NCBI GenBank assembly: GCA_016744335.1 | Contig: JADGEO010000008.1 | Coordinates: forward strand, 15,736-79,735 | Direction of reading: 5' to 3' | Length of the DNA: 64,000 bases | Origin: Anaerolineales bacterium | Lineage (GTDB): Bacteria > Chloroflexota > Anaerolineae > Anaerolineales > Villigracilaceae | Shown here: positions 24,619 through 48,900 of the stretch, piece after piece | Numbering within the stretch: the first letter of the stretch is position 1 | Layout of the letters: the number at the start of each line of letters is the position of its first letter | The notes under the pieces: generated by a model | The model's input: only the letters and a program-made list of their open reading frames with translations | Databases searched by the model: none | Told to the model about the DNA's origin: nothing | Made by a program: the position numbers and the translations under genes

Positions 24619-24657
24619 AGTTCTTGTTCCTTTTTGGAAGATAGCTCCTTGCATTAT

Positions 24658-24819
24658 GGGGATGAGATGCACGCGGGACGCTCGCGTTTTTGGCTTGGTG
24701 CTTGCGCCCAAGCTGGGGATGTGGGACGTACGTTTCTACGCTATATATGTTTACGTCGAGATCCTGTTGACGATGAGCACTCAAGTAGATGTTACGCGCG
24801 TTGCGGTTTTTTATCATCC
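24658..24819 (+). repeat. structured intergenic element, copy D (CTTGAGTGC-core family)
   Basis: It starts GGATGA and ends TCATCC, like copy C. The 3' part, GCACTCAAGTAGATGTTACGCGCGTTGCGGTTTTTTATCATCC, aligns closely with copy C (16384-16423). Confidence 0.6.
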
Positions 24820-29118: not shown

Positions 29119-29194
29119 ATTTTGAATCCTTTTTCAGTTGCCAGTTTTTGGTATTTCATAGTCAATGTATAACCGCAATATATTATTCCACATT

Positions 29195-29925
29195 TCAGCC
29201 CTTATCTATCGGCAAGTCCAGATAAAAGCGAGTGAATTGATTTTCTTCACTCTCAAAGGTGAGTTTCCCATGATGATCCTGAACAATGCCGAGGCTGATT
29301 GAAAGCCCTAACCCGGTGCCTGTGGTGCGGTCTTTGGTGGTATAGAAGGGATCGAAAATCCGCTCTCTTATTTCAACAGGAATGCCCGCCCCACGATCTT
29401 CTATGGTTGTACGCAACCAATGCTGTCCGTCTTTTTCGAAAGGGCGCACCGTTACCGTACAAATTTTATTAGGATCATATTCCGGATAGTGTTCGTTCAG
29501 TGCGTCACGGGCATTGGTGAGCAAATTCATTATTACCTGTTGGATTTGCTGGTTGCGACACTGGATTTTGGGCAGATTTTCGGGCACATCGACCTCCAAT
29601 GTGATTTGGTCCTGTTTAATGACTGTGCGAATCAACAAAAGTGTGTCGTTCATTATATCGGTCATTCTGGCTGCGCTATGGGATTGCTTTTCCTGTCGGG
29701 AAAAGGTGAGCAGATTATGCACGATTTTTGCTACGCGCTTGGTTTCTTTAATGATTCCAGCGGAAAACTCGCGCAGGCGACTCTCGCCCGGGTCAATGCG
29801 GTCATGGATCAGTTGAGCATAGTTCATGATGCCCATTATGGGGTTGTTGATCTCGTGGGCAACACCGCTGGCTAAGGTTCCAATCGCTTCGAGTTTCTGA
29901 TGCTGGCGGAGGTGGGCTTCAAATT
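29195..29925 (-). repeat. shared HisKA-HATPase transmitter cassette, copy 1 (DNA-level repeat)
   Basis: It aligns with 31681-32425 over its whole length and has 27-45 nt runs of perfect identity, for example TTCACTCTCAAAGGTGAGTTTCCCATGATGATCCTGAACAATGCC. Confidence 0.85.
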
Positions 29926-31603
29926 CTTGTTTGTCTTCTTCTGCTTGTTTACGCTCGGTGATATCTAAGCCAACGGAAAGTAACCCTGTAATACTTCCCT
30001 TTGCGTCTCGGAGTGTGCTGTCACTCCACTCAATTTGACGTTCGTGTCCATCCTTTGTCGTAATCGGGCTAGTATTGTTCTTTGTTGGGGCATCCCCTAT
30101 AGCATTTTTGAACAAGGCGCGAAGCTTTAAATTATCTTGCTCGGGCAAAAAAACGCTAAACCAGGACTGACCCTGAACTTCGGCTAAGGAGTATCCAGAG
30201 AGAGACTCCATATAAGAATTGAAACGCACAATCCTACCCTCCACATCCAGCACCAATATAATGATTTGGGCTGTGTTGAGCAAATTCTCTGCGAAATCCC
30301 GCTCTTTCTGCAACTCTTTCTGCACCCGTGCCCGCTTGGTGATTTCTGCTTCAAGCTTCTCAATGGATGTTGTTGTCTTTTCAAGTCCTTTTGCCATAGC
30401 GTTGAAGGCATTCCCCAAATGTCCGATTTCATCTTTTCGTGAAGTAGTAATCCGAGAGCTTAAATCCCCTTTGGCAACTTCCTCACTTTGTTCAATTAAT
30501 TGTATCAAGGGTTTCACTGTTTGATTGCCAAGGAAGAATGCTGTAAAAGCCAGGAAAAATATGAGTAGAATTCCAGTATAGGAAAGCATTAGCGTTGAGA
30601 CTTTTAGAGAACTTAAAACATTTTCCATTGAATGATAGTTTATGATGTACCAAGATTCACCAATATTACCTTTTTGATGGTCTATTGATTTAAATGTTCC
30701 CCCAAAATCATAACCTTTTATCCCCGAAGTGATCCCGATTTCCGACATACCAATCAACCATTTCTTTTCTGAATCATCAAATACGAAAGACTGATTATTC
30801 CCAAGTTCTAATTTCTCAGATATTACATCGGGGACTCGGTTTTTCAGGGGTTCGGAATTTTCCTCAAAGATAATTTCTCCACCACTGCGAACCAGTTTGA
30901 AATCTCCTACGTATTCATTTTGGGAGCTTAATATCAATTGGCTTATAGCTCCTAGTATGTTTAGATTCACTTTTAAAATACCAATTATTTCATCTCCCTG
31001 TTTAATAGGGACAACCAAACCTAATACATATCCACCAACACTGTCATCATAACCACGGTCATCAAAAAATACAGCTCCTTCACCATTATTAAAAGCTCCT
31101 TGCCACCAATATTTATCATGGTGAGCAAAGGTAGTGAGCTTGGCTGTGGATGCAACAAGAGCACCGTATTTATTGGTTAGGAAAATTTCGCCATATTCTC
31201 CCTCTAAATTATTTTGCTGTTCTTTTAGAAAACGCGCGGTATCATTATCTGTGAATTCAAGAATGAATGCATTATTTTCGTCATTGCTTGCTTGCCATTC
31301 TTCATTTTGGAGTTGAATTTTTTCATTCCTTCTTATTTCAGATAATTGGCTGTAAGAGCGATTGCTTTCTTCCAAAGCCGCTTTTAGGGTGGGCGTGATA
31401 GAAAGTGTTTGGGTGGTTTTAACTTTTTCCAATAGCAACTGTTCTATATTTATAGAAGCTTCAGTTGAAAGAGCTATCGTGTGTTGGAGTTCGCTATTTA
31501 TAGTTGTGTTTTTATTGCCAACATAAACCGTAAACATAGTAACGGAAAGTATTATTAGGCCTAATATGAAAATATTTAATCCTAGTCTAATTGCGTAGCG
31601 CAT
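29195..31603 (-). CDS. sensor histidine kinase A (extracytoplasmic Cache-like domain - HAMP - PAS - shared transmitter cassette)
   Basis: It has an N-terminal TM, a ~300-aa periplasmic region and a second TM. The HAMP region is KGDLSSRITTSRKDEIGHLGNAFN. The PAS unit is followed by the H-box AHEINNPIMGIMNYAQLI and the G-box GTGLGLSISLGIV. Confidence 0.9.
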   Translation of the reverse strand: MRYAIRLGLNIFILGLIILSVTMFTVYVGNKNTTINSELQHTIALSTEASINIEQLLLEKVKTTQTLSITPTLKAALEESNRSYSQLSEIRRNEKIQLQNEEWQASNDENNAFILEFTDNDTARFLKEQQNNLEGEYGEIFLTNKYGALVASTAKLTTFAHHDKYWWQGAFNNGEGAVFFDDRGYDDSVGGYVLGLVVPIKQGDEIIGILKVNLNILGAISQLILSSQNEYVGDFKLVRSGGEIIFEENSEPLKNRVPDVISEKLELGNNQSFVFDDSEKKWLIGMSEIGITSGIKGYDFGGTFKSIDHQKGNIGESWYIINYHSMENVLSSLKVSTLMLSYTGILLIFFLAFTAFFLGNQTVKPLIQLIEQSEEVAKGDLSSRITTSRKDEIGHLGNAFNAMAKGLEKTTTSIEKLEAEITKRARVQKELQKERDFAENLLNTAQIIILVLDVEGRIVRFNSYMESLSGYSLAEVQGQSWFSVFLPEQDNLKLRALFKNAIGDAPTKNNTSPITTKDGHERQIEWSDSTLRDAKGSITGLLSVGLDITERKQAEEDKQEFEAHLRQHQKLEAIGTLASGVAHEINNPIMGIMNYAQLIHDRIDPGESRLREFSAGIIKETKRVAKIVHNLLTFSRQEKQSHSAARMTDIMNDTLLLIRTVIKQDQITLEVDVPENLPKIQCRNQQIQQVIMNLLTNARDALNEHYPEYDPNKICTVTVRPFEKDGQHWLRTTIEDRGAGIPVEIRERIFDPFYTTKDRTTGTGLGLSISLGIVQDHHGKLTFESEENQFTRFYLDLPIDKG

Positions 31604-31680
31604 GCTTAAATCCTTTTATCTGAAAAAAATGTTTGTGTATTGCTACGTTATTATCACTAATAATCAAGGTCATTTTATCC

Positions 31681-32425
31681 TTATCCTTCTACGTCCGAGC
31701 CCTTATCTATGGGTAAGTCGAGATGAAAGCGTGTGAATTGATTTTTTTCACTCTCAAAGGTGAGTTTCCCATGATGATCCTGAACAATGCCAAGGCTGAT
31801 TGAAAGCCCTAACCCGGTGCCTCTGGTGCGGTCTTTGCTGGTGTAAAAGGGATCGAAAATCCGCTCTCTGATTTTAGCCGGGATGCCCATCCCACGATCT
31901 TCGATTGTGGTACGCAACCAGTGTTGCCCGTCTTTTTCGAAAGGGCGCACCGTTAGCGTACAAATTTTATTTGGATCATATTCTGGATAGCGTTCGTTCA
32001 GCGCGTCACGGGCATTGGTGAGCAGATTCATTATTACCTGTTGGATTTGCTGGCTGCGGCACTTGATTGTGGGCAGATTGTCGGGCACATCGACCTCCAA
32101 TGTGATTTGGTCCCGTTTAATGATCGTGCGGATAAGAGAAAGTGTTTTGTCTAAGATATCATCGATTCTGGCTGGTCTGTGGATTTGCCTATCCTGCCGT
32201 GAAAAGGTGAGCAGGTTACGAACGATCTCAGCTACTCGTTCGGTTTCATCGATGATTCCAGCGGAAAACTCGCATAATCGGTCCTCTGCCGGGTCGATAC
32301 GGTCATAAATCAATTGAGCATAATTCATGATGCCAGTAAGCGGGTTGTTAATCTCGTGGGCAACACCGCTGGCTAAGGTTCCAATAGCTTCGAGTTTCTG
32401 ATGCTGGCGGAGTTGGGTTTCGAGA
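31681..32425 (-). repeat. shared transmitter cassette, copy 2
   Basis: See copy 1. This is the closest partner of 29195-29925. Confidence 0.85.
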
Positions 32426-33975
32426 CTTATTCGTTCTTTTTCTGCCTTCACACGGTCAGTAACGTCTGTTCCAATAGCCCACTGCTCCCAGCCAGGAATG
32501 GAAACCTGTTTCGATATATTTGCCCAAGACACCGTTCTTGTACTTCCATCCTTGTGCTTGATATCCCATATATGATCTCTATAATCGACAGTATGTTCAG
32601 AAATTTCTGTCTTCACCTGATTAAGGGTTTCTATATTTGGATACAGAAATTTCATAGCCTTTGGGTTTTCGATGATTTCTTCTGCGCTGTAACCGGTCAC
32701 TAGCTCACACTCCTGATTCCACAGGACAAAATTCCCTTCGGCATTGATAGCGTCTATCATAATGGGAATATTCTGAACCAACAGGCGCAGCCGCTTCTCG
32801 CTCTCCTGCAGTGCCTCCTCCGCCCGCACCCGCTCGGTGATATCGCGGGCAATCCCCAATACACTTTTTTGAATTCCTTCTTCTTTGATTGGAGATATTG
32901 CCAATTCCACAAGAATTGCTTGACCATTTTTGTGGCGCAGGGGCATTTCTCGCACACTATCCTTTGCCCACATTTGCAATTGCTCATCGCTGGGTAGTTT
33001 TTCAGCTTGAAACCTTAGGTCGCTAACCCTCATTTGATGAATCTCTGTCAGTGAGTAGCCAATCATTTCAAGAGCAGCTGGATTTGCGTCTTGATATTCA
33101 CCTTTTAGGTTGATAATAAAAATGGCATCTTGAGAGGCATCAAATAGATCGCGGTAGTGCGTTTCACTTATTGCGGCTGCTACGTTATATTTTTGAGCAA
33201 AATAGACTGCTGAAATCGTGATGAAAGAAAATAGTAAGCCAAAGGTGAGCGTTTTTTTTGTGTCCCCAATTTCAGTATCAAGGAATTCCTCTGTAGGCGC
33301 AAAAGTTAAATCAAGAACGGTTGTGTTTTCAAAAGTTATTATTTTACTGGTAGCAAACCCTTCTTGAGGGGGTTTCCAGTTGGCGCTTTTGAAAATTACG
33401 GTCCCTTCATCTGAAAGTTGGAGCATATAATCATCATTTGTTTCATTCAGCACAGGTGAAATAAATGCATCAATATCGATTGTCCCAATGACATAGCCCG
33501 TAAATTCTTCACCGTCATAGACAGGAACCCATAAATTAACATCTGATGAATCCCCGTTAATTTCACTAGCACTTTGATTTATATAGGGCAGATTATCTTG
33601 AAGTGGCACAATCTGCCGAATATGATAGGTTTCATCAACCCAGGCAATACTTTTTATCCCTGTAAATGCGTCAATATAAAATGCTGCATCTTTTGCCCAT
33701 TCGTCAATGTCTTTTTCATTACGAGGCGCACCTCGTGATACCAATCGCTCAAGTGCTTGATGGATGCTGTTATATCTAATTTCTGTTTCACTGGCGTAAT
33801 GTCTTGCTTTCGATTCTGTGCTTGAAATAATTTGAGCTAGGTTTCTTGATGCTTGTGTTCTCCACAAAAAAACAGAGACAGCGACCAAAGAAAAGCCAAG
33901 TAGAATTAGAAAAGCGCGTGCAGAGAAGAATTTCTTACTTGATTTAACAAACTTGTTTTTGATGTTTTCTATCAA
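31681..33975 (-). CDS. sensor histidine kinase B (extracytoplasmic domain - PAS x2 - shared transmitter cassette)
   Basis: It has two TM segments flanking a ~200-aa outside domain and two PAS units. The transmitter is near-identical to kinase A (AHEINNPLTGIMNYAQLI...GTGLGLSISLGIVQDHHGKLTFESE). Confidence 0.9.
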   Translation of the reverse strand: MIENIKNKFVKSSKKFFSARAFLILLGFSLVAVSVFLWRTQASRNLAQIISSTESKARHYASETEIRYNSIHQALERLVSRGAPRNEKDIDEWAKDAAFYIDAFTGIKSIAWVDETYHIRQIVPLQDNLPYINQSASEINGDSSDVNLWVPVYDGEEFTGYVIGTIDIDAFISPVLNETNDDYMLQLSDEGTVIFKSANWKPPQEGFATSKIITFENTTVLDLTFAPTEEFLDTEIGDTKKTLTFGLLFSFITISAVYFAQKYNVAAAISETHYRDLFDASQDAIFIINLKGEYQDANPAALEMIGYSLTEIHQMRVSDLRFQAEKLPSDEQLQMWAKDSVREMPLRHKNGQAILVELAISPIKEEGIQKSVLGIARDITERVRAEEALQESEKRLRLLVQNIPIMIDAINAEGNFVLWNQECELVTGYSAEEIIENPKAMKFLYPNIETLNQVKTEISEHTVDYRDHIWDIKHKDGSTRTVSWANISKQVSIPGWEQWAIGTDVTDRVKAEKERISLETQLRQHQKLEAIGTLASGVAHEINNPLTGIMNYAQLIYDRIDPAEDRLCEFSAGIIDETERVAEIVRNLLTFSRQDRQIHRPARIDDILDKTLSLIRTIIKRDQITLEVDVPDNLPTIKCRSQQIQQVIMNLLTNARDALNERYPEYDPNKICTLTVRPFEKDGQHWLRTTIEDRGMGIPAKIRERIFDPFYTSKDRTRGTGLGLSISLGIVQDHHGKLTFESEKNQFTRFHLDLPIDKGSDVEG

Positions 33976-34005
33976 TAGCTTTTCCTTCTGACTGTTTCAG
34001 TTATT

Positions 34006-35535
34006 TTATTCTTCCCAGGAAGCATTCCAGATTTCTTCCAAGGTTTTGTATCCTTTTTTCTCTAGCTCCGATATATAGCCGTCCCAATCTTCATCAATGC
34101 TGAGTTCACCTATAATAAATAATTGACCTGTTTCAGCTGTATAAGGGGCGATTTTTTCATCAAGAATGCGGATGGCTTCAATGGCATTAGAATCTAATTC
34201 AAGCTGTGGGGCAAGTTTTGCAGTCTCGCCAGCACTTAGGGACCTATCCAGAAAGGCTACTATTTCAGGTGGTTTTTTATAATCTTCGAACTCTTCATTT
34301 TCAGTCAGATTAAAGAGCGTATTGAGACCATATTCCGCCGTTATGTCAAGCATCCCTTCTGGGTTTTTTGGCGTTTTGATGTTGGGAAGATAAGCTTTTC
34401 CATTGGGAGTGTTTTCAAAAGTTGTACCCTCAATGCCCCAAGTGGTTAAGGTTCTGCCTTCCTCAGAATAAACTGCCCAATCTAAAAAAATGAGCAGGTC
34501 TTCAAAATAGGGTTCATTGATTACCCGAGCAGGCACGACCAATCCTTTTTTGAATGGGTCCACTGCTGGCAGTGCCCTAATACCAATGGTACTTTCGGGC
34601 ACTGGGAGGGCAGCCCACTCTCCATCAGGGAAACCATTTTCTTCCAGTTTTGCATTCCAACCATCAAAACCCGGTGTGATCCACGTAACCGTAACTAAAG
34701 CTCTGCCATCTTGAATCTTATTATAATAATCTTCATTGTTTTGTGTGAAAATGTCTGGGTCGAGAATTTCTGCCTGATAACAACGATTTAGAAAGCGATA
34801 AAGCTCTTTATAGTTTTCAGTTGCAGGAGCAAATTGCCAACGATTTTCTGCCTCATTATAAGATCTGGTACCATCCCACCCTGCCGGGATGTCGTAACCT
34901 GATCCCATCATGGAGAATAAATGTGCTCCTCCCCAAGAAGCGGTGATGGGCGTTGTGTCAGGATAAATTTCTTTTAAATACACTAAGGCATCAAACAGTT
35001 CATCATAAGTATTTGGGATTTCCAGACCGTTTTTTTTGAAAATATCTCGCCGGTAAACCCATTGTTGGACCTGATTTTCTCTTTGATAGCCGGGAAGAAT
35101 ATAATACTTTCCGTTGGCTAATCTCAGTTTATCCAATTCGCTTTCTAGATTATGCTTCTTTATATAGTCCATAAAATTCGGCATGAGGCTTTCGTAATCG
35201 CTAAAAGCTAACAAAGTTCCAGCGGAGGCATAATTTTTGATGGTGTCTGGCCACACTTTTAAAACAATATCCGGAATATTTCCTGATTCGAATGTTTGGG
35301 TTATAGCCGTTCCATAGTCGGCATCATCCCTAAGATGAACGTTCAGGATAACATTCTGGCGATTTTCGTATTCTTCGAGAATTAGCCACTCTGTTTGAAA
35401 AGGAGTATTTTCCTCTTCATTATATAAAACGGAAAAAATAATTGGTTCTGCTGGCTCTTCTGTGGAACTGCATCCCACTATGCCTGTTGACAGGAATGTT
35501 CCTAGCATAATGACAATAACTATCATTTTCTTCAT
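34006..35535 (-). CDS. orphan extracellular solute-binding lipoprotein (ABC family-1, sugar-type)
   Basis: The lipoprotein signal is MKKMIVIVIMLGTFLSTGIVG|C and a GGAGAAAG SD precedes the start. The size and sequence resemble large family-1 SBPs. No permease or ATPase gene lies nearby. The ORF-track start 35598 adds 21 aa before the signal peptide. Confidence 0.75.
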   Translation of the reverse strand: MKKMIVIVIMLGTFLSTGIVGCSSTEEPAEPIIFSVLYNEEENTPFQTEWLILEEYENRQNVILNVHLRDDADYGTAITQTFESGNIPDIVLKVWPDTIKNYASAGTLLAFSDYESLMPNFMDYIKKHNLESELDKLRLANGKYYILPGYQRENQVQQWVYRRDIFKKNGLEIPNTYDELFDALVYLKEIYPDTTPITASWGGAHLFSMMGSGYDIPAGWDGTRSYNEAENRWQFAPATENYKELYRFLNRCYQAEILDPDIFTQNNEDYYNKIQDGRALVTVTWITPGFDGWNAKLEENGFPDGEWAALPVPESTIGIRALPAVDPFKKGLVVPARVINEPYFEDLLIFLDWAVYSEEGRTLTTWGIEGTTFENTPNGKAYLPNIKTPKNPEGMLDITAEYGLNTLFNLTENEEFEDYKKPPEIVAFLDRSLSAGETAKLAPQLELDSNAIEAIRILDEKIAPYTAETGQLFIIGELSIDEDWDGYISELEKKGYKTLEEIWNASWEE

Positions 35536-35594
35536 GGTGCTTTCTCCGTATAAGTTATAAAAGTAAAAACCGTTCATCCTCGCCTCTTTTTTGT

Positions 35595-36350
35595 TCATTC
35601 AACTTTCTCTTCTGTTTCCCAATCATTGACCACAGGCAAGTCGAGATAAAAACGTGTAAATTTATTTTCTTCACTCTCAAAGGTCAGTTTTCCGTGATGA
35701 TCTTGGACGATTCCAAGACTGATTGAGAGCCCTAACCCCGTGCCTGTGGCACGGTCTTTGGTAGTATAGAATGGATCGAAGATGCGCTCTCTAATCTCAA
35801 TCGGGATGCCCGCCCCACGATCTTCGATGGTTGTCCGCACCCATCTTCGCCCTTCTTTTTCAAAGAGACTTGCTCTCACAGAAATGATCTTTTCAGGGTC
35901 GTATTCAGGGTAGCGTATGTTCAGCGCATCGCGGGCGTTAGTGAGCAGATTCATAATTACCTGCTGTATCTGTTGACTGCGACACTTGATTGTCGGCAAA
36001 TCATCCGGCACATCTACCTCTAATTTGATTTGATCCCGTTTAATGACCGTACGGATAAGAGAAAGTGTTCCGTCTAAAACATCAACGATCCTCGTTGGGC
36101 TATGGGATTCATTTTCCTGTCGAGAAAAGGTGAGCAGGTTACGAACGATCTCTGCCACACGCTCACTTTCAAAGATGATTTCTTTAGAAAACTCGCGTAG
36201 ACGATTTTCTGCTGGGTCAATGCGCTCATGAATGAGCTGGGCATAGTTCATAATACCAGTGAGCGGATTATTGATCTCATGAGCCACGCCTCCGGCTAAG
36301 GTGCCGATGGAGGCTAGTTTCTGCTCCTGGCGGAGATGGGCTTCAAGCTC
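35595..36350 (-). repeat. shared transmitter cassette, copy 3
   Basis: It is collinear with copies 1, 2, 4 and 5 at the DNA level, from the H-box to the stop codon. Confidence 0.8.
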
Positions 36351-38864: not shown

Positions 38865-39620
38865 AATTTATTTTCTATTTCTGGTAACTTCCAGCCATTG
38901 TCCACAGGTAAATCAAGATAAAAACGCGTGCCTTTCCCTTCTTCGCTCTCAAAGGTCAGATTGCCGTGATGATCTTGAATAATGCCAAGACTGATTGAGA
39001 GACCTAGCCCTGTACCTGTAGCGCGATCTTTGGTGGTGTAAAAAGGATCGAAAATTCGTTCTCTAATTTCAACTGGGATGCCCGCGCCAGAATCTTCAAC
39101 GGTTGTGCGTAGCCATCTGTGTCCTTCTTTCTCAAATAGCTTCACACTTATATTAATAATCTTATCTGGGTCATATTCCGGGTAACGCTCATTGAGAGCA
39201 TCACGGGCGTTGGTGATCAGGTTTATCAGCACCTGTTGGATCTGCTGACTACGACACCTAAATTTAGGGAGAGCATCTGGTATATTGATTTCCAATATGA
39301 TTTGATCACGTTTAATGATTGTTTGAATCAACGAGAGAGTGTTGTCTACAATATCGGTCATTTTGGCAAGACTATGGAAATGTTTTTCCTGCCGAGCAAA
39401 GGTGAGTAGATTGCGCACAATTTCTGCTACGCGCTCGCTTTCCTCGATGATACCAGCAGAAAACTCGCGCAGGCGACTCTCTGTTGGGTCAATTCGGTCA
39501 TAGATTAATTGGGCATAGTTCATGATGCCCATAATTGGATTATTAATCTCATGAGCGACACCACCTGCTAGCGTCCCAATTGATTCAAGTTTTTGTCTAT
39601 GACGAAGATGGACCTCCATC
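38861..39620 (-). repeat. shared transmitter cassette, copy 4
   Basis: It shares 65-nt and 63-nt runs of perfect identity with copy 5, for example CCATTGTCCACAGGTAAATCAAGATAAAAACGCGTGCCTTTCCCTTCTTCGCTCTCAAAGGTCAG. Confidence 0.9.
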
Positions 39621-42223
39621 TGGTGTTTTTCTTTTTCCGCCCGTACACGCTCGGTCACTTCAATAATCTGCACAAGATATCCTATAAGTTCTCTATCACC
39701 TATTAACGGGCAAACGTACATGTCCAAATAGATAATTCCAGATCTCTTTGAGGGGAATAAGCCCGTCTTTTTTACAGTATCAAAGTCTAAGTTAGTGGGT
39801 ATAAAGACAGCCTCCCCATTTTTTAAAATTTCCGCATTTTCTGCTGGCATATTTGGGTCAGCCCACATATTAAACCCAAGCACGTGACTCTTATCATCGA
39901 TTCCGAACAAAGTTAAGGTTTGCTCGTTGGCATCAAACAATTTACCATCTTTGTCGTAGATTTGAATGGCAAGGGGAGATTGCTCAAAGATATTACGGAA
40001 ATTTTCTTCGCTTTTTTTCAAGGCTTCCTCTGCCGACTTACGTTCGGTGATATCTTCAGCTGTGGCCAGTATCCCAAAGATATTGCCCTCATTATCTTTT
40101 AATGGCATTTTATTGGTACGCCACCAAAAAAATTTACCGTCTGGGGTTGTGTAGTCCTCTTCATACCCTAATTTGGGCATTCCACTTCTCAAGACTTGGC
40201 GATCATCTTCAATATATTTTTCAGCTTCCTGTCCCCAAATTAATTCAAAGTCATTTTTACCGATCACATTTTCGGTTTCTGTCTCTCCTGCGGCTTTTGC
40301 AAAAGAAGAGTTACAGCCTAAATAGACTGAATTTATATCTTTCCAAAAGATTCTTATTGGCATCAAATTGATGACTAACTCAAACATGTCCTTTTGTTTT
40401 TTTAGTTCTTCTTCCATCATTTTTCGATCGGTTATGTCAATTAAACAACCTCGTACTAATATCCCATTACCATTGTCGTCTCGCTTAGTTACTTCGCCAG
40501 ATATCATCAGCCAGTGCACGCTTTCATCTGGCCATATGATTCGATAATCAAAGCTGTAAAAATTAGAACCGCCTGGGGCAAAAACTTCTTCGATAATACG
40601 GTCGGATGCTTGGCGGTCATCTAAGTGCGTTGCATCTAAGTAAGTGCCGGTATTCCATACTTTTTGCACTTCCAAGCCATAGAGATCGTCGTAATTTGAC
40701 GAGTGCTCCATGTGGTCAGCAACAATATCATATTCCCATACCGCCACATTAGCCGCCTCTGTACTCAGTCTCAATCGCTCTTCGTTGAGTCTTATGGCCT
40801 CTTCTGCCTTTGCCAATTTGGTGATGTCTCTCGAAATGCCCAAAACCGTCTTTACACGACCACTCAGGTCAAATTCTGGGAATAGTCGCCAATCCAGATA
40901 AACTTTCCCTTCGGACCCTTCCCAATCAAAGATAGTTTGGATTGATTCCCCTGTCTTAAATACATGGGTGATCTTTTCCTCCCAGTCATTACTTAAATCT
41001 TCATCAAAACCCGCCTCTAGGTGGGTTTTGCCAATGATATCCTCTTCGGTTAAACCAGACACCTGTAAAGCAGCCGGGTTTTCGTATAAGTGTCTACATT
41101 CTTCGTCGTATCGCATAATATAGTCCTGGCTATTTTCAGCTAAAGACCTGAAATCTTCCTCACTTTGACGCAGTGCTTCTTCGCGGGAATTAACTGCCTC
41201 CCTCATGACGTTAAAACTCTCGGTGAGTTGATCGATTTCCTGGTAATGTTGTTCTAGCGGAACAGCACGATAATCACCATGAGCTATTTTTTGAGAGTAT
41301 TCAGTTAGGTGTAAGAGCGGCTGTAAGGTTTTTTTCAAACTGAACAGGGCTATTATGATAGCAATCACCAGAGCGGACAATGCCCCGATCCCGATAATAT
41401 TTCTCATTCTTATGACTGAAGAAAATGATTCATCAACCGGTTGAGTCACTCCCACCAGCCAGCCTGTTCGGGAAACAGGAACCACGCTACCGAGCAGATT
41501 TATCCCATTCACCTGATACTCAAAGGTGCCATCCTGTCCGCTTAAGCCTTGTTGAATTGCATAATGAAAGCCAATATTTTCCCGTTGAGAAACGAGAGAT
41601 TCGCTGCGATGTGCGATAAGAGTGCCTTTGTTATCCGTAATCAGGGCATACCCCTGTGACCCTATTTTAATTTCCGCAATGATGGCGTTAAGGGCGCTCA
41701 GGTTCAAATAGCCAACAATCATTTCGTTTTTAAAGGGAATACTCAGTGTTAGGGTCGGTTCCCCACTTCGCGTGGAAATAAAGATTGACGACCAATAGGG
41801 CGCGCGAAGGTCACTGGTGGCTCGAAAAAAATCCTGACCTGACATATCGAGCAGAAACAAATCTTCTGAATAAGGAGCAAGATGCCTGACTATTCCCGTA
41901 TGATCAAGGATCATGATTGTGTCAAAGAATTGGTAATGTTGAATAATTGAATCTAAATAGGCATTTCTTTGATCTGATGTAATGAGTTGCTTTGTGTCGA
42001 TGACATCTTCTACGTGTTTCAAAATATGCAGTGGTTCATCCAAGAATCGCTCCACCTCGCCGGAAATGGAGTTGGCTAGCAGAAGGTTTCTCTCCGAAAT
42101 TTCCTTTTCCAAACCGACAGTCATAATCTGCAAGCTGAGTAAACCAATCCCAAGAATCGGCAATATCGTTACCAACACAAAGTTTATTGTCAATATATTT
42201 CTGAGACTAGAACGTGGTTTCAT
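38861..42223 (-). CDS. sensor histidine kinase D (dCache-like domain - HAMP - multiple PAS - shared transmitter cassette)
   Basis: It has TM, a ~260-aa outside domain, TM and HAMP (AHGDYRAVPLEQHYQEIDQLTESFN). Several PAS units precede the cassette. The start lies 2 nt after the SBP stop, and the stop overlaps the kinase C start by 4 nt. Confidence 0.9.
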   Translation of the reverse strand: MKPRSSLRNILTINFVLVTILPILGIGLLSLQIMTVGLEKEISERNLLLANSISGEVERFLDEPLHILKHVEDVIDTKQLITSDQRNAYLDSIIQHYQFFDTIMILDHTGIVRHLAPYSEDLFLLDMSGQDFFRATSDLRAPYWSSIFISTRSGEPTLTLSIPFKNEMIVGYLNLSALNAIIAEIKIGSQGYALITDNKGTLIAHRSESLVSQRENIGFHYAIQQGLSGQDGTFEYQVNGINLLGSVVPVSRTGWLVGVTQPVDESFSSVIRMRNIIGIGALSALVIAIIIALFSLKKTLQPLLHLTEYSQKIAHGDYRAVPLEQHYQEIDQLTESFNVMREAVNSREEALRQSEEDFRSLAENSQDYIMRYDEECRHLYENPAALQVSGLTEEDIIGKTHLEAGFDEDLSNDWEEKITHVFKTGESIQTIFDWEGSEGKVYLDWRLFPEFDLSGRVKTVLGISRDITKLAKAEEAIRLNEERLRLSTEAANVAVWEYDIVADHMEHSSNYDDLYGLEVQKVWNTGTYLDATHLDDRQASDRIIEEVFAPGGSNFYSFDYRIIWPDESVHWLMISGEVTKRDDNGNGILVRGCLIDITDRKMMEEELKKQKDMFELVINLMPIRIFWKDINSVYLGCNSSFAKAAGETETENVIGKNDFELIWGQEAEKYIEDDRQVLRSGMPKLGYEEDYTTPDGKFFWWRTNKMPLKDNEGNIFGILATAEDITERKSAEEALKKSEENFRNIFEQSPLAIQIYDKDGKLFDANEQTLTLFGIDDKSHVLGFNMWADPNMPAENAEILKNGEAVFIPTNLDFDTVKKTGLFPSKRSGIIYLDMYVCPLIGDRELIGYLVQIIEVTERVRAEKEKHQMEVHLRHRQKLESIGTLAGGVAHEINNPIMGIMNYAQLIYDRIDPTESRLREFSAGIIEESERVAEIVRNLLTFARQEKHFHSLAKMTDIVDNTLSLIQTIIKRDQIILEINIPDALPKFRCRSQQIQQVLINLITNARDALNERYPEYDPDKIINISVKLFEKEGHRWLRTTVEDSGAGIPVEIRERIFDPFYTTKDRATGTGLGLSISLGIIQDHHGNLTFESEEGKGTRFYLDLPVDNGWKLPEIENKL

Positions 42224-42225
42224 AG

Positions 42226-43344
42226 TTACTCTTCCTTTACGAATATCCCATCTTTAATCGTAAATAGTTTGAAGTTTCCTGTTGGATCCCCAAACTCATC
42301 AATAACCAAATCATTTTGTAATCCAGGAAATATCTGTTGCTCGATAATAGCGCGTTTAAGAGTTGCGGCTTCATAGTCGGTAGTATTTTGCATGGCCGTA
42401 TACAGCATATAGACTGCCTGATAGGCATAGATTGCGCCAAAATTGGGCTCAAGATTAAATGTGGTCTCTAGTTTTTCTGCAAACGCCACAAAGGCCGGCT
42501 CTTGGCTGTTCATATCAACTACCTGGACAAAATTAATGCCTTCAACGGCTTGGCCGCCATGCTGAATCAAATCGGTAGTTGTGGCCCATCCTGCCATAAA
42601 AATAGGGGTATCTGTATCCAATTTTCTGATCTGCTGAGAAATCAATGCGGCGTCAATCGATCCGGCCAGTATGAGAATTCCATCCGGTTTTGTGTCTTTT
42701 AATGGCGTGACAAGTGTTGAAAAGGAGGTATTTGTGCCTGATGTAAATGTAATTGTAGAAGCCACTGTTCCTGACAATGATTCATAGGCAGATTGAAAGT
42801 CATTGAGATTGGTTTCGGTTAAGTCTTTATTAGCCAAATCATAGATGACACTCATGGTGTTCAGTTTGAAATTGTGCATTGCAAATTCGGCAATTGCCGT
42901 CATTTCCGCATCGCTGACGGGTGTAATTCGAATAAAAAAATCATCCAGCCCTGACAAGCGGGGCGTACTTGCTGTAGGAGCAATCAAAAGCATTTCTTGT
43001 TGATTGATGAGGGGAATAACTGCCAGGCTCATTGTGCTTGTGGCATGTCCGATAATGGCAACAACCTCTTCATCTATCAATTCTTGGTCAACCCTCAGCG
43101 CAACTTCAGGATCATTCTGATCATCTTTTACGATGAGTTCCAGAAGGCGTCCATTTATGCCGCCGGACGCATTGATTTCTTCCACAGCAAGTAACGCTCC
43201 GGCTCTCTCCGAAACTCCCAATTCTGACATCCGGCCACTTAACCCAGCTACAAATCCAATCTTAATGGGTTGTTCTGATGAACAACCCATTAAGAACAGC
43301 ATGAAAAGCATATATAAAATGTTGACTACATATATTTTCTTCAT
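42226..43344 (-). CDS. orphan periplasmic-binding lipoprotein (LivJ/Peripla_BP_6 type)
   Basis: The lipoprotein signal is MKKIYVVNILYMLFMLFLMG|C and a GGAG SD precedes the start. The sequence IKIGFVAGLSGRMSELG...INASGGINGR is typical of branched-chain amino-acid-type SBPs. No transporter genes are adjacent. Confidence 0.75.
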   Translation of the reverse strand: MKKIYVVNILYMLFMLFLMGCSSEQPIKIGFVAGLSGRMSELGVSERAGALLAVEEINASGGINGRLLELIVKDDQNDPEVALRVDQELIDEEVVAIIGHATSTMSLAVIPLINQQEMLLIAPTASTPRLSGLDDFFIRITPVSDAEMTAIAEFAMHNFKLNTMSVIYDLANKDLTETNLNDFQSAYESLSGTVASTITFTSGTNTSFSTLVTPLKDTKPDGILILAGSIDAALISQQIRKLDTDTPIFMAGWATTTDLIQHGGQAVEGINFVQVVDMNSQEPAFVAFAEKLETTFNLEPNFGAIYAYQAVYMLYTAMQNTTDYEAATLKRAIIEQQIFPGLQNDLVIDEFGDPTGNFKLFTIKDGIFVKEE

Positions 43345-43480
43345 TTTTTTCTCCTTATGTAACTTGCTAGCCATCTTCTCTTTTCAATGTGACACGTGCT
43401 TTTGCCTTCGCTCGATTTGGCCACATAACGATGACATAATCTTCTCGACGTTTTGTATACTGAAAGCAGCTTTGCTCAAA

Positions 43481-44230
43481 TTACTTCTCCAACTCCCACC
43501 CATTGTCCACAGGTAAATCAAGATAAAAACGCGTGCCTTTCCCTTCTTCGCTCTCAAAGGTCAGTTTGCCGTGATGATCTTGAACAATGCCAAGACTGAT
43601 TGAGAGTCCCAGCCCTGTACCCGTAGTGCGATCTTTGGTGGTGTAAAAAGGATCGAAAATTCGTTCTCTAATTTCAACTGGGATGCCCGCTCCGTGATCT
43701 TCAACGGTTGTGCGTAGCCATCTTCGACCTTCTTTTTCAAATAGTTTCACACTTATATTGATGATCTTGTCTGGGTTATATTCAGGATAACGCTCATTGA
43801 GGGTATCTCGGGCGTTGGTTAGCAAGTTCATCAGCACCTGTTGAATTTGCTGGCTGCGACATTTGATCTTAGGGAGGTCATTGGGGACATTTACCTCTAA
43901 TGTGATTTGATCCCGCTTGATAATTGTACGGATCAGAGTGAGTGTGCCGTTCATGATGTCAACCATTTGAGCTGGGCTGTGGGATTGCTTTTCCTGGCGG
44001 GCAAAGGTCAGCAAGTTGTGCACGATCTCTGCTACACGTTTGGTTTCATGAATTATTTCAGAGGAAAACTCGCTTAATTGCTTTTGGCTTGGCTCCAGAC
44101 GTTCACCAATCAACTGAGCATAGTTCATGATGCCCATGATAGGGTTATTGATTTCATGAGCTACACCACCAGCCAGTGTGCCAATTGATTCGAGTTTCTG
44201 TCCATGGCGCAGATGCACTTCCATTTGTTG
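43481..44230 (-). repeat. shared transmitter cassette, copy 5
   Basis: It is the closest partner of copy 4 and of the decayed copy at 47985-48472. Confidence 0.9.
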
Positions 44231-45853
44231 TTTTTCCTCCTGAGCCCGCACTCGCTCGGTGATGTCACGCACAATGCTTATCCATGCCACTTGTCCCTCA
44301 TATTCGATGGGAGCTGTGTTAACTTCAACTCGGATAGGTTCTCCTCCTTTTGTAACGTGAAGGTAGCTGTGTTCTAAGGTGTTATCTTCATCATTTATGT
44401 TTTTTTCGACTTCTAATAAATCTTCTTGGGGATGAAGGTCTTGTGGTGTCATCTGGCGTAATTCTTCTAGAGTGTATCCATAACGGTTCAACGCAGATTG
44501 ATTGCAGTCTAAAAAATAGTATTTCTCTTTATCGAAGATAAAAATTGGATCTGCAATTTGAGCAAAGAGACTACGATATTTCTTTTCGCTCTCCCGCAAC
44601 TCTTCCTCAGCTTTGATACGTTTTTCCTCCAACTCAAGGCTGTAAAGTGCAAATGATATATCTCCAGCAAGCTCTTCAAATAGAGATACTTCTTCTGAAT
44701 CGATGGTAGATTTTGTTAGCATGGTAATGTTGAGCATGCCATAAATTATTCCGTTGAACTCCAGCCTGATGGCAAGCGTATTATAAGGTTTACTGCTGTC
44801 CGATAAAAAACAATCCATACAAAGGTCTGAGGTATTCGTAATATGTTGCATACCTTTCTGAGCGAGGGTGGTATGGGAACAGGGCGTCAGATCACATCTT
44901 TCAAGCAAGTCTGTCAGAGATAAAGTATTGCCCCGCATATCTCTGTGGACGAATTTGATAGGGGTATTTTCTTTGTTGACCAACAAAATCCAGGAGGCTA
45001 TATAGCTATCTACTTCGATAAGGTGCTGACAGGCTCTTTCAAGTAGGCGGTCGAGATCTCTCTCTTGTGTAATAAGCTGATTGACATTACGAATGGCACG
45101 CAGGATGCGGGTGAGATGGATAATTTTGGCTACTGCACCCTCGCGGGCTTCAATCATTTCATTTGTCCCACGCTGTAAGAAACCTATCTCGTCCTGTGAT
45201 TTGGTTTCCTGAACTCGAGTGGATAAATTTCCATCCCTAACGCGTTTGAGAATTTCTGCAAGATCGCCAATAGGATTTATTATCATCCAGTTAAAAGAGA
45301 TGATAATCACCAACGATGTTATCAACATCGTTATGAGCGAACCGAAAATGAATAGGCGCGTTAGTTCAGTTTTCTCGGCAGTGGCTCCAAGATTGCTGAC
45401 TTCTGTATATACAAAGAAGCGCGGCGTACGCTGGTCGGCTGCATAAATTGGAGAAATAGCGATCACTTTTTCTAATTCTCGGATCACTACATTTTGAGAA
45501 TTGTTGATATTGAACAGGGCAATGTCTACATCGGGGACATTGCTGATATCCATTCCAAGCAGAGTAGGGTCGAGGGCGTAAAAAACATTGCCGTTCACGC
45601 CGACCACCATCCCAGAGATCAACTCATCGCCGACCAGCTCCCGCATCGTGACTGAATCAGATACCGAGTCAAAACTCAGTAATCCGGCATTCATCAGCAC
45701 ACCGGGGAGTTGAGCTTGGGCATCAATCCGTAAATCAACCTCATCAAAAAAACGGTTGATGTAGATGATTCCCAATACTGTTTGTACGATCATCTCCACC
45801 AGGATGATGATGGCTCCAATTTTGAAGGAAAGACTGTTGATTTTTTTTTTCAT
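43481..45853 (-). CDS. sensor histidine kinase E (extracytoplasmic domain - HAMP - GAF - PAS - shared transmitter cassette)
   Basis: It has TM, a ~170-aa outside domain, TM and HAMP (RDGNLSTRVQETKSQDEIGFLQRGTN). A GAF-like region and PAS precede the cassette. I placed the start at MKKKINSLSF (ATG 45853) rather than the ORF-track start 45946. Confidence 0.85.
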   Translation of the reverse strand: MKKKINSLSFKIGAIIILVEMIVQTVLGIIYINRFFDEVDLRIDAQAQLPGVLMNAGLLSFDSVSDSVTMRELVGDELISGMVVGVNGNVFYALDPTLLGMDISNVPDVDIALFNINNSQNVVIRELEKVIAISPIYAADQRTPRFFVYTEVSNLGATAEKTELTRLFIFGSLITMLITSLVIIISFNWMIINPIGDLAEILKRVRDGNLSTRVQETKSQDEIGFLQRGTNEMIEAREGAVAKIIHLTRILRAIRNVNQLITQERDLDRLLERACQHLIEVDSYIASWILLVNKENTPIKFVHRDMRGNTLSLTDLLERCDLTPCSHTTLAQKGMQHITNTSDLCMDCFLSDSSKPYNTLAIRLEFNGIIYGMLNITMLTKSTIDSEEVSLFEELAGDISFALYSLELEEKRIKAEEELRESEKKYRSLFAQIADPIFIFDKEKYYFLDCNQSALNRYGYTLEELRQMTPQDLHPQEDLLEVEKNINDEDNTLEHSYLHVTKGGEPIRVEVNTAPIEYEGQVAWISIVRDITERVRAQEEKQQMEVHLRHGQKLESIGTLAGGVAHEINNPIMGIMNYAQLIGERLEPSQKQLSEFSSEIIHETKRVAEIVHNLLTFARQEKQSHSPAQMVDIMNGTLTLIRTIIKRDQITLEVNVPNDLPKIKCRSQQIQQVLMNLLTNARDTLNERYPEYNPDKIINISVKLFEKEGRRWLRTTVEDHGAGIPVEIRERIFDPFYTTKDRTTGTGLGLSISLGIVQDHHGKLTFESEEGKGTRFYLDLPVDNGWELEK

Positions 45854-45964
45854 ATCGTTTACGCATAAGCCTAAAATAAAATCTATTATTTTCTTCAGGC
45901 CAAGCCTCTTTAGTGGATAAATAAGCCTGTAATAGTTATCGTGCAAATCAATCTGCTATTACTC

Positions 45965-47929
45965 CTACGGGACAATAAAATACTGGCACGGGTTAGTCGG
46001 AGCGGGGCTGGGGTATGTCCAGGCATATGGAAGGAGTTTGGGTACGTTATGCATACGGTTAGATACAATACCATAACCATTACCGGGGACTGCAATGCCA
46101 ATGGTATGGAATTCTTCGGCTGCGATTTCTAATATATTCATCATCAATTCATCTTGGACAGATGTATCAGCAGTGGCTTTAATTTGGTCATAGAGTTCCA
46201 TTTGTTGTTGTGCCCACAAAGGAGGGACTTCACTCTCGAAATACTCGTTTGGTGAATACCACCAGACCCATTTCATACCATACCCTGCCTCTGCATTACC
46301 AGGAAAATACATCCCTGGCGTCAGAATAACATCAAGTCCGCCAGTACCTGACCAAACTAAGGCATCATGGGTGGCAAAATTGCGGCTTTCATCTAATTCC
46401 TGCCAGCCTTTTTCTTCAATTATGGTGCGGATGCCAACTGCCTCCCAATCCTCTTTGATCAGTTTAAGTGCCTCAGGCCAGTCTTTGTTGAATACATCTG
46501 CGACTTCAATCGTGATAGTTAAACTATTCCCATCTAGGTCTTTACGGAAGCCATCCTGTTCTTTTTCTGTGAGACCAGCTTGGTCTAGATATTCTCGTGC
46601 TAAATCAGGATCGTAGTCTGTGTATTGGGTTGCAAGTTTTTCGTTATAAAAGTGGGATTCGGGACGAGGGGCTGCCTGATAAGGGGCTAAGGCGTTAGTG
46701 AAGACTTGGTCGATAATTCGTTGACGATTGATAGCCAATGATAGGCCAACTCGAAAATCTTTATCTAAGAAAATCTTCCGTTTTACAGGATCGGGGTGAG
46801 TGAGGTTAAATTGGATAACCATCTCATTCATATCGCTAGGTTTGGTGGCCACAAACCAGTAATCAGTTAAAGATTTGGTGTACAAATCTTGATTCTCTGG
46901 TTTATTGATATGTCGTATTTGCATATCGATCTTGCCAGCGGTGGCCAGTTTAACAAGTTCATCGGCCGATTCGGCTAGGGTGAAATGTAGTTCATCGATA
47001 TAAGGAAGTTGCTGAAAATTCGTATCTATCTTCCAGTAATATGGGTTTCGGTGGGCATTTAGGAAACCGCTATCATTGGGTTCATAGGCGGTGGAAAAAA
47101 CCCATGCGTGCAGGGTTGGGATTTCAGGGTTCCACCAGCATCGCTTTGAGTGATTAAAGCGATGTTGCCAATTATCGAATCCGAGTTCTTTGGCAATTAT
47201 ATCGGCTTCAGATGAGTTTTCAGGCAAAAACTGTTCCAAATAGTGTCGTGGATATGAAGTGATGTCGGCACCTCTAGGGAATGCAAGGTATTGAAGAAAT
47301 AACCCATAAGGTTGACTGAAGCGAATGATAAAACTGGTGTCTGAAAGGATTTCAACCTCCCATGATTCGCCACCTGGTGCCAACCAATCTGGCGGGCCAT
47401 TAGGGAAAAAATCTTGATTTTGAGTCCATTCATAATAGAAAAGAATATCAGAGCTTGTAAAAGGATGTCCATCAGACCAACGCATACCTTCTCTAAGAGT
47501 AAAGGTGAAAGCAGTTGAATCTTTGTTGACTTCAACTGATTGGGCAATATTAGGGATTGTTTTTGTCCAGTTGGCATCCCACTGAACCAAATTTTCATAG
47601 GTAAAGGTGCGCACGAAAAGTCCTGTATCCTTGGAATTCAATGCACCCATGCGCCAAGTGCCGCCGTAAACACCAACACGCTCTACTGGCTGGATGAGCA
47701 TAGGATTAGTGGGTAAACGCTCTTCTACCGAAGGAAGTTCGTCATTGATAACCATCGCAGCTAATTGAGGAGCTTCATTATAGATAGATTTGGAGTCAAC
47801 ATCAGGTTCTTCTGTAAGAGTTGCCTTCTGCACAGTTTCAATCTCATCCAACTCCTGTGTTGACCTACATCCTGCCATGTCTATTGACAGCAATATCCCC
47901 AATATGATAACAACAATTGTTTTTTTCAT
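45965..47929 (-). CDS. orphan extracellular solute-binding lipoprotein (ABC family-5, peptide/oligosaccharide type)
   Basis: The lipoprotein signal is MKKTIVVIILGILLSIDMAG|C. The ~650-aa size and sequence resemble family-5 SBPs (RWSDGHPFTSSDILFYY, HFTLAESADE). No permease or ATPase gene lies nearby. Confidence 0.75.
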   Translation of the reverse strand: MKKTIVVIILGILLSIDMAGCRSTQELDEIETVQKATLTEEPDVDSKSIYNEAPQLAAMVINDELPSVEERLPTNPMLIQPVERVGVYGGTWRMGALNSKDTGLFVRTFTYENLVQWDANWTKTIPNIAQSVEVNKDSTAFTFTLREGMRWSDGHPFTSSDILFYYEWTQNQDFFPNGPPDWLAPGGESWEVEILSDTSFIIRFSQPYGLFLQYLAFPRGADITSYPRHYLEQFLPENSSEADIIAKELGFDNWQHRFNHSKRCWWNPEIPTLHAWVFSTAYEPNDSGFLNAHRNPYYWKIDTNFQQLPYIDELHFTLAESADELVKLATAGKIDMQIRHINKPENQDLYTKSLTDYWFVATKPSDMNEMVIQFNLTHPDPVKRKIFLDKDFRVGLSLAINRQRIIDQVFTNALAPYQAAPRPESHFYNEKLATQYTDYDPDLAREYLDQAGLTEKEQDGFRKDLDGNSLTITIEVADVFNKDWPEALKLIKEDWEAVGIRTIIEEKGWQELDESRNFATHDALVWSGTGGLDVILTPGMYFPGNAEAGYGMKWVWWYSPNEYFESEVPPLWAQQQMELYDQIKATADTSVQDELMMNILEIAAEEFHTIGIAVPGNGYGIVSNRMHNVPKLLPYAWTYPSPAPTNPCQYFIVP

Positions 47930-47984
47930 GGTGCTCTCTTTTAGTATACGTGGGATAAACCGAATATATATGCCTCTTCTTTTC

Positions 47985-48472
47985 TCATTCATCTTTCATC
48001 TCTACGCACCAATTATTGTCCACCGGTAAGGCAAGATAAAAACGCGTGCCTTTCCCTTCTTCGCTCTTAAAGGCCAATTTACCGTGGTGATCTTGAACGA
48101 TACCGAGACTGATAGAGAGACCTAATCCCGTTCTTGTAGCACGTTCTTTGGTGGTGTAAAAAGGAACAAAAATACTTTCTCTGATTCTAAAGGGAATATC
48201 TGCCTTAAAATCGTTCGTAGCTATCTTCGACTTTCTTTCTCGAAGAGATTTACGCTCACGTCATAATTTTGTCTGGGTCATACTCTGGGTTGAGGGTATC
48301 ACGGGCAAAGGTCAGTAAGTTGTGCACGATCTCTGCTACGCGTTTGGTTTCATAAATTATTGCAGAGGAAAACTTGTTCAATTGCTTCTGGCTTAGGTCT
48401 AGACGCTCATCAATCACCTGAGCATAGTTTATGATGCCCATGATAGGGTTATTGATTTCGTGAGCTACGCCC
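47985..48472 (-). pseudogene. decayed, 5'-truncated sixth copy of the shared kinase transmitter cassette
   Basis: It aligns with the 3' end of kinase E (43481-44190) but has several indels and an internal deletion of roughly 190 nt. Similarity stops abruptly at ~48471, inside the H-box (AHEINNP). Only a 61-aa ORF fragment survives. Confidence 0.85.
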
Positions 48473-48699
48473 CTCTTACATCTTTAACAATATATTCGCT
48501 GTCAATGACAATTACATTTTTGTTAATACTGTCTGAAAATAGCATTGGTTTTCTTTGAGCGTATCCTTTGTTTGTACTTGCTCTATTTTATCTGCTATCT
48601 CTTAAACATCTATCTTTACTATAGCATATTTAGCTTGTAAGAAATATATTGATTAGATGACAAAAGCTTTCCTTTTTCTTGGATAAAAAAACCGCTTCG

Positions 48700-48850
48700 C
48701 ACTTGCCCTCAACTTGGGTGCCGATATTTGATGTTCTCTTGGCGTAAACAGGGGCAAGGCGTTCACATCAAGATTCTGTTTGGGGTTTGCACCCCAGCCT
48801 AAAACACGTATGCCAAGCCTGCCGAAGTCCGCACGATGTAGGTTTCCATT
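48700..48850 (+). repeat. structured intergenic element, copy E (CTTGAGTGC-core family)
   Basis: P2 is CTTGGGTGC (48713-48721) / GCACCCCAG (48789-48797). P3 is TCTTGGCGT (48737-48745) / ACATCAAGA (48765-48773). The core AGGCGTTCACATCAAGATTCTGTTTGGGGTTTGCAC is nearly identical to copy F. Confidence 0.65.
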
Positions 48851-48900
48851 CTAGAGCAGTTGCGCCATCGAGTTTGAAGTGTACCTTTATTTCTTTTCTT

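Follow-up and report, generated by a model that had tools for sequence, protein, structure and literature searches.

A tandem array of histidine kinases with a shared transmitter module and a predicted common receiver in an Anaerolineales bacterium

We analyzed a 64,000-nucleotide (nt) stretch of DNA (here called the window; positions 15,736 to 79,735 of the forward strand of contig JADGEO010000008.1, assembly GCA_016744335.1) from an Anaerolineales bacterium of the phylum Chloroflexota. Five histidine kinases encoded there, designated A through E, carry different sensor regions joined to one conserved C-terminal transmitter, and the gene for a hybrid kinase, U, starts 76 bp beyond the stop codon of kinase A, the last kinase of the array. 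The explanation that best covers the results as a whole, to which we assign a probability of roughly 0.65, is that the array was built by transmitter duplication and sensor shuffling, that its copies have been held together by purifying selection with occasional gene conversion, and that the N-terminal receiver domain (REC) of U is the predicted hub for all five kinases.

A conserved transmitter on unrelated sensors

The five open reading frames (ORFs) lie where an initial annotation of this DNA had placed them, all on the minus strand (Table 1), and the differing input architectures that it described are borne out by Pfam. HisKA (PF00512) and HATPase_c (PF02518) score above threshold in all five proteins, and the H, N, G1, F, and G2 motifs do not vary among them, as in class I HisKA-type kinases. 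Their sensor parts show no relationship or only a generic resemblance. What they have in common is an NtrB-like transmitter, referred to as the cassette, which consists of a coiled-coil linker, a dimerization and histidine phosphotransfer (DHp) domain, and a catalytic and ATP-binding (CA) domain. The C-terminal 239 to 249 residues of A through E, from HLRxxQKL to DLP, align without gaps at 84% mean column identity, in agreement with the earlier description of the last ∼235 to 245 codons as almost the same protein. When nucleotide identity was followed in anchored 30-nt windows, it rose from a background of 0.1 to 0.4 to 0.5 to 0.7 at −60 nt and was 0.6 to 1.0 from the HLR codon onward. Similarity thus begins 60 to 90 nt before the HLR motif, where the last PAS domain ends (DIT-ER motif). 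The module therefore has its start at that point and takes in the coiled-coil linker as well; the sharp boundary at the PAS/DHp junction that had been proposed is present.

Age of the copies

The initial annotation had also called the cassettes near-identical at the DNA level and not old paralogues; the first statement is too strong, and the second fails for most pairs. The five copies are only 72 to 86% identical in nucleotide sequence. The synonymous divergence (dS, Nei-Gojobori) ranged from 1.2 to infinity in eight of the ten pairs, compared with 0.43 for A-B and 0.95 overall for D-E, whereas the nonsynonymous divergence (dN) was 0.09 to 0.17. Among codons for the same amino acid, the fraction that was identical was 44 to 55% in the eight old pairs, which is taken as the saturated background, 78% in A-B, and 65% in D-E. 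For most pairs the dS of the cassette is as saturated as that of the sensor PAS domains. Since cassette dS is comparable with the dS of alignable sensor parts, a test that the annotation itself had named, most pairs are old paralogues. Only A-B and the last ∼240 nt of D-E (dS 0.10) are young, and strong purifying selection (dN/dS about 0.05 to 0.1) is the main reason that the copies have stayed alike.

The wider family leads to the same picture. The transmitter is widespread and slowly evolving, with 756 proteins matching at E < 1e-40, many of them 60 to 79% identical to kinase D, and copies from outside the window are 75 to 84% identical to those within it. The cassette of kinase A is 84% identical to outside copy P0003 and 85% identical to that of B, the best match of the C cassette is P0004 (79%), and in a scan of a genome collection with the cassette the best among the matches listed was 63% identical. 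Neighbor-joining trees were built with 300 or 500 bootstraps, also for 5′ and 3′ partitions of the cassette. The five window copies were monophyletic in only 14 of 300 and 14 of 500 bootstraps, with A+B supported at 84 to 91% and D+E at 77 to 80%. Copies A, B, and C grouped with P0002, P0003, and those of locus L165, and copies D and E with P0001 and those of locus L081. As both clades hold copies from other genomes, at least two transmitter subtypes, {A,B,C} and {D,E}, predate this genome. The pattern of a lineage-specific expansion, in which cores are closer to one another within a genome while the upstream domains are non-homologous, was seen for A+B, for D+E, and within loci L081 and L084; the five copies together lack it (14/500).

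These results make it quite improbable that all five cassettes were homogenized by recent, repeated conversion and belong to orphan kinases that address a distant response regulator, as was originally envisaged. The sharp boundary at the PAS/linker junction, the long identical runs between D and E, and the within-genome homogenization in L084 and L081 would fit such a history. Synonymous sites, however, are saturated in eight of ten pairs with identical-codon fractions at background (0.44 to 0.55), the five copies are not monophyletic, and a gene for a receiver of the cognate type lies immediately downstream of A.

Gene conversion between particular neighbors

The exact-match runs between copies are as had been reported, 65 and 63 nt in D-E and up to 45 nt in A-B (45, 35, 33, 30, and 28 nt). 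The 65-nt run of D-E exceeds the expectation for independent, identically distributed sites (P < 2e-4), whereas the 45-nt run of A-B is no longer than 86% identity would lead one to expect (P = 0.12). The D-E comparison is a mosaic: pS, the proportion of synonymous differences, is 0.80 (saturated) over codons 1 to 120, dS is 1.0 over codons 121 to 165, and dS falls to 0.10 over codons 166 to 236. This pair contains 31 consecutive identical synonymous codons (permutation p = 0.0002), and among the ten pairs it is the only one in which identical synonymous codons cluster beyond chance. The partitioned trees conflict in the same way, with D+E recovered in 75 of 500 bootstraps for nt 1 to 360 and in 500 of 500 for nt 481 to 708, and in the 5′ tree D is closest to A (76%). 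Mosaic synonymous divergence, discrete tract ends, and tree incongruence along the gene, the marks of gene conversion, thus coincide in D-E.

A sixth cassette copy lies at the upstream end of the array. It opens abruptly at GVAHEINNP, has neither a sensor nor a start codon, lacks ∼60 internal codons that include the N box, has also lost the G1 box, and contains frameshifts and stop codons; the abrupt start, internal deletion, frameshifts, and stop codons identify it as a pseudogene. It too is mosaic, its 5′ 170 nt being 90% identical to E and its 3′ part only 74 to 77% identical to E and D. Upstream of it lies a 425-bp AT-rich non-coding stretch (48476–48900), in which neither a remnant of a sensor region nor an Rfam match was found.

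Two related loci from other genomes show the process more clearly. L084 (760–5047), a metagenomic scaffold, encodes two tandem kinases of 1017 and 401 amino acids (aa) with unrelated N termini, and between their cassettes 715 consecutive nt are identical, running from the linker (QAEEEK) to DNGW, with pS of 0.03 and immediate divergence on both sides. L081, a marine metagenome contig, carries orthologues of three window genes at 72 to 76% identity (pS 0.63 to 0.74) and, at the place corresponding to the array, genes for a PAS-kinase, a binding protein, a dCache-kinase, a second binding protein, and a second dCache-kinase. Every one of these kinases has the cassette. The three L081 cassettes are monophyletic in 499 of 500 bootstraps and 84 to 90% identical, with pS of 0.39 to 0.53 compared with 0.63 to 0.74 for the true orthologues, and the sensor parts of L081 and the window are only 25 to 30% identical and not orthologous.

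From the D-E mosaic, the tree conflict, and the pseudogene mosaic we conclude that conversion does happen, in sub-module tracts between particular neighbors. The module-bounded copying or conversion that the initial annotation had in mind is real in this lineage; in the window it is older and partial. The transmitter behaves as an exchangeable module, and the claim of repeated conversion or cassette exchange stands for the 3′ tract of D-E, the 5′ part of the pseudogene, L084, and L081. It fails for eight of the ten pairs: the signature was found for D-E, for E with the pseudogene, and for L084, and in none of the other eight pairs. A literature search for reports that histidine kinase transmitters evolve in concert or undergo gene conversion found nothing relevant in the library used.

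A history of ancient duplication and shuffling under purifying selection, with no conversion at all and with the D-E tract put down to selection on RNA or to chance, would agree with the saturated dS of most pairs, the low dN/dS, and the slow evolution of the family across phyla. We consider it very improbable, because the D-E dS drops from saturation to 0.10 within one gene with significant codon clustering, the 5′ and 3′ trees conflict, both the 65- and the 63-nt run lie beyond the expectation for independent sites, and 715 identical nt in L084 connect genes with unrelated 5′ parts.

A predicted receiver partner for the array

The initial annotation had stated that no dedicated regulator gene lies beside any of the kinases. 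For kinase A this is incorrect, since U, downstream of it, carries a receiver of the type that accompanies this transmitter elsewhere. We searched 80 genome loci with cassette homologues, and a receiver of the U N-terminal type began within ∼100 nt downstream on the same strand in 22 of the 36 cassette genes that scored at least 150 bits. The N-terminal REC of U was the best window match, in reciprocal comparisons, for all 23 of 23 downstream receivers of homologous cassettes; these receivers scored 62 to 191 bits against it and 26 to 60 bits against the next best of 10 or more window RECs. The nearest relatives repeat this adjacency. In L165 a cassette kinase (77 to 81% identical) is followed by a 179-aa ORF and then a receiver 78% identical to that of U. 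In L084 the two cassette kinases precede a REC-PAS-GAF-GAF-HD-GYP protein (receiver 66% identical), and the receiver of L166 is 63% identical. In L167 the end of a cassette kinase is followed after 16 bp by a stand-alone receiver (69% identical) and then by a second one (65%) fused to GAF-GAF-HD-GYP. Next in L167 come a PAS hybrid kinase, an Hpt protein, a REC-ParA-like protein, and a homologue of the window ORF 16916–17638, in the same order as downstream of U. The output domains on U-type receivers vary (HD-GYP or a kinase core, and a sigma-54 activator in distant relatives). The closest solved receiver to that of U is NtrC1; in the U receiver the acidic pocket and the phospho-Asp, Thr, and Lys are conserved, and helix 1 (SIRITLSEFLR) is almost identical to its L084 counterpart (SIRITLGEFLR). 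A metagenome scan with the U receiver, the patterns of which were generic REC motifs, returned matches of 44% identity or less and was unhelpful.

Partner choice of histidine kinases is reportedly dominated by helix-1 positions H+7, H+8, H+11, and H+12 of DHp, according to Skerker/Laub-type studies. We aligned the cassettes to HK853 and read these positions as M-G-N-Y in A, D, and E and as T-G-N-Y in B and C. Over the first turns of helix 2 the sequence is SAGII in A, B, and D, SKEII in C, and SSEII in E. The DHp specificity residues had been described as the same in all five; three of the four helix-1 positions are indeed invariant, whereas H+7 (Met or Thr) and the start of helix 2 differ. 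Because the helix-1 specificity residues are almost invariant, a many-to-one arrangement is plausible, and a design with many inputs and one receiver, with U as its hub, is plausible given these residues and the single receiver of the cognate type at the downstream end of the array.

The kinases might alternatively be wired one to one, with the specificity differences insulating them, the N-terminal REC of U serving A only, and the partners of the others located elsewhere or among the ten window REC proteins. The variation at H+7 and at the start of helix 2 would suit this arrangement, as would the many REC proteins nearby and the argument of Alm et al. (PMC1630713) that cross-talk is generally limited, even in expansions. 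We regard it as unlikely, for no other window REC resembles the cognate receiver type of the family (45 bits or less versus 62 to 191 bits), only one of the four core helix-1 positions varies, and in the related loci L084, L017, and L167 two or three tandem cassette kinases are accompanied by a single or paired downstream U-type receiver gene.

Under the preferred explanation, with U as the common target, the array grew as the transmitter was duplicated and fused to unrelated sensor regions by domain shuffling. Module-bounded gene conversion or recent duplication (the D-E 3′ tract, the 5′ end shared by E and the pseudogene, and A-B) was superimposed on purifying selection. Each kinase would sense its own ligand, some through an adjoining binding protein, and would autophosphorylate on the conserved His, and phosphate from all five would pass to the N-terminal NtrC-type receiver of U. 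As a receiver-controlled hybrid kinase, U could then relay the integrated signal to the REC-HisKA_3/LuxR pair, REC-HD-GYP protein, hybrid kinase with Hpt, and REC-ParA-like proteins encoded beyond it. The gene layout, the pattern of divergence, the mosaicism, and the conserved position and orthology of the receiver type were observed directly; phosphotransfer from A through E to U, like everything downstream of U, is what we infer.

Several points weigh against this explanation. Two or three differing positions in the specificity zone could in principle insulate some of the kinases. The CA half of the cassette is more conserved than the DHp half (proportion of nonsynonymous differences, pN, 0.04 versus 0.12 to 0.15), so a shared partner is not needed to explain the conservation. 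In L081, the closest relative, the cassette array is followed, within the contig, by a different kinase and receivers that are not of the U type. Of this genome the analysis covered the window, and further U-type receivers or cassette copies may occur elsewhere in the genome. The similarity of A and B could reflect plain duplication followed by sensor replacement instead of conversion. The L084 tract could be either a very recent module-bounded conversion or an artefact of a metagenomic scaffold, in which an assembly effect is possible.

A further extension is possible, if doubtful: the transmitter may be maintained as a standard plug by module-bounded conversion, so that newly captured sensors, often together with a partner binding protein, would be wired at once to U, and DHp heterodimers might integrate signals. 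Such heterodimers might form because co-expressed kinases share almost the same DHp. If this were true, the locus would be an evolvable sensor-capture array instead of a simple set of paralogues.

Comparison with known signaling networks

The locus appears to follow a known way of building networks, namely lineage-specific kinase expansion with domain shuffling that would form a multikinase network, and presents no new signaling principle. Alm, Huang & Arkin (2006; PMC1630713) described lineage-specific histidine kinase expansions with domain shuffling in Desulfovibrio and Nostoc, of which only one or a few members adjoin a regulator. The window resembles these in having paralogous cores on shuffled N-terminal sensors, a PAS domain just before the core, and mostly orphan kinases. 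It differs in that its kinase genes sit in one compact tandem array with solute-binding-protein genes in between, and in that similarity starts after the last PAS, whereas the boundary in that study lies before it. Module-bounded gene conversion, for which there is explicit evidence here, is a term without mention in that paper (PMC1630713).

The Kin kinases of Bacillus are dispersed and more divergent. Several inputs to one receiver, as proposed for the window, are known from KinA–E and Spo0F of Bacillus (PMC8749435) and from the GacS network (PMC8175716, PMC8498467); here, by comparison, sequence and synteny are the basis of the proposed convergence, the kinase genes lie in one cluster, and the transmitters are 72 to 85% identical.

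Among solved structures, the LvrB kinase core (8vc9, E = 4e-54) comes nearest to the cassette, and ZraS and HK853 rank next. In the Lvr relay of Leptospira, LvrA acts on the receiver-controlled kinase LvrB, which acts on LvrC (PMC13269768, PMC5863495), and as in that relay (PMC13269768) an upstream kinase would phosphorylate the N-terminal receiver of a second kinase. LvrB-type proteins have an N-terminal REC that a helix joins directly to DHp-CA, whereas U has five PAS/GAF modules between its receiver and its kinase core as well as a C-terminal receiver; its N-terminal receiver is closest to NtrC1, and it would follow five upstream kinases instead of one. The logic is similar and the architecture different.

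The array also recalls NtrB/NtrC-type pairs (ZraS/ZraR, NtrC1) in its H-box (HE-I-N-N-P), in the presence of ZraS among the best PDB matches, and in the NtrC-type receiver, and distant cassette homologues are followed by REC-sigma54-HTH regulators. NtrC-type regulators combine REC, a sigma-54 AAA+ domain, and HTH_8. In this lineage, unlike in those pairs, the receiver is fused to a kinase or HD-GYP output, and that of the window to PAS-GAF-kinase modules, so the system is related to the NtrB/NtrC type and not a member of it.

The analysis yields a concrete prediction of many inputs to one receiver in a poorly studied phylum, with five defined kinases and one named receiver domain. The array is a clean natural example of how new kinases are made, with sensors joined to a conserved transmitter at a fixed junction after the last PAS and module-bounded gene conversion directly visible in relatives. 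Chimeric sensors could be designed with this junction and the cassette as a guide.

Gene layout and chromosomal setting

Table 1. Window coordinates of the kinase array, its conversion tracts, and associated genes. Kinase input domains are from Pfam.
Feature	Position	Strand	Description
U, 1424 aa	24844..29118	−	REC-PAS-PAS-GAF-GAF-PAS-HisKA-HATPase-REC; N-terminal NtrC-type receiver 28744–29118
Kinase A, 802 aa	29195..31603	−	Weak dCache, HAMP, PAS; cassette 29195–29914
Kinase B, 764 aa	31681..33975	−	Extracytoplasmic region, weak dCache, 2 PAS; cassette 31681–32415
X1	34006..35598	−	Lipoprotein solute-binding protein, SBP_bac_1; directly upstream of B
Kinase C, 1089 aa	35595..38864	−	Cytoplasmic PocR, 4–5 PAS; cassette 35595–36338
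Kinase D, 1120 aa	38861..42223	−	dCache, HAMP, PAS x4; cassette 38861–39610
D side of D-E gene-conversion tract	38888..39130	−	G1 box to C terminus; 94% nt identity, dS 0.10
X2	42226..43374	−	Lipoprotein periplasmic-binding protein, Peripla_BP_6; 2 bp upstream of D
Kinase E, ∼790 aa from ATG	43481..45853	−	HAMP, GAF, PAS; cassette 43481–44215
E side of D-E gene-conversion tract	43493..43735	−	
F	45965..47992	−	Lipoprotein solute-binding protein, SBP_bac_5; upstream of E
Sixth cassette copy	47988..48475	−	Pseudogene; directly upstream of F

The ORF of kinase E reaches a TTG at 45946, and the ATG at 45853 is the likelier start. Plus-strand ORFs at 29420–29875 and 32401–32703, within cassettes, were judged by position only and taken as by-products of the coding sequence on the opposite strand. 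A tRNA scan found no tRNA and an Rfam scan found no family at gathering score. Counts in a promoter and terminator scan of 29000–48950 equaled the shuffled expectation and were uninformative on operon structure.

The solute-binding-protein genes X1, X2, and F belong to three different families, each lies directly upstream of a kinase or kinase group, and all three products carry lipoprotein-type signal sequences (…VGC, …MGC, …AGC). Genes for an ABC permease or ATPase were not found nearby, and the three proteins are probably co-sensors for the adjoining kinases. L081 shows the same pattern of kinases and binding proteins with other families (ABC_sub_bind and NMT1).

The window is chromosomal; it opens with ddl-ftsQ-ftsA-ftsZ, and its FtsZ is 95% identical to that of an Anaerolineales metagenome-assembled genome. 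An exact look-up of a window protein in public assemblies gave no record. As a whole the window is unusually rich in signaling genes, and from ∼54 kb down to ∼17 kb nearly all genes lie on the minus strand and code for signaling proteins. The block downstream of U (15028–24711) encodes a REC-HisKA_3 kinase with a REC-LuxR regulator, a REC-HD-GYP protein, a PAS-kinase-REC-REC-Hpt hybrid, two REC-ParA/BcsQ-like proteins, and a protein with a Flp-pilin-like N terminus and a 3-keto-disaccharide-hydrolase domain. Metagenome contig L167 (155–9546) shares synteny with part of this block, the output of which may concern cyclic di-GMP and surface or pilus functions.

Between the kinase array and a conserved REC-kinase/PAS-kinase pair, a single gene (48901–51129) encodes a 742-aa protein in which a KAP-family P-loop NTPase is fused to a formylglycine-generating-enzyme-like (FGE-sulfatase) domain. 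L081 has an insertion sequence transposase and a PAS fragment at this place; the head of its kinase array (6887–8245) holds a DDE transposase and a truncated PAS ORF, which suggests that mobile elements contribute to array turnover. Farther away, 11424–13691 encodes a 755-aa protein with an unusual fusion of Peptidase_S24 (LexA/signal-peptidase-like), DUF5305, and an HD-GYP-type HD_5 domain, and 56529–58469 encodes a Ser/Thr protein kinase that carries TPR repeats at its C terminus; additional PAS/GAF histidine kinases lie nearby (61134–62687).

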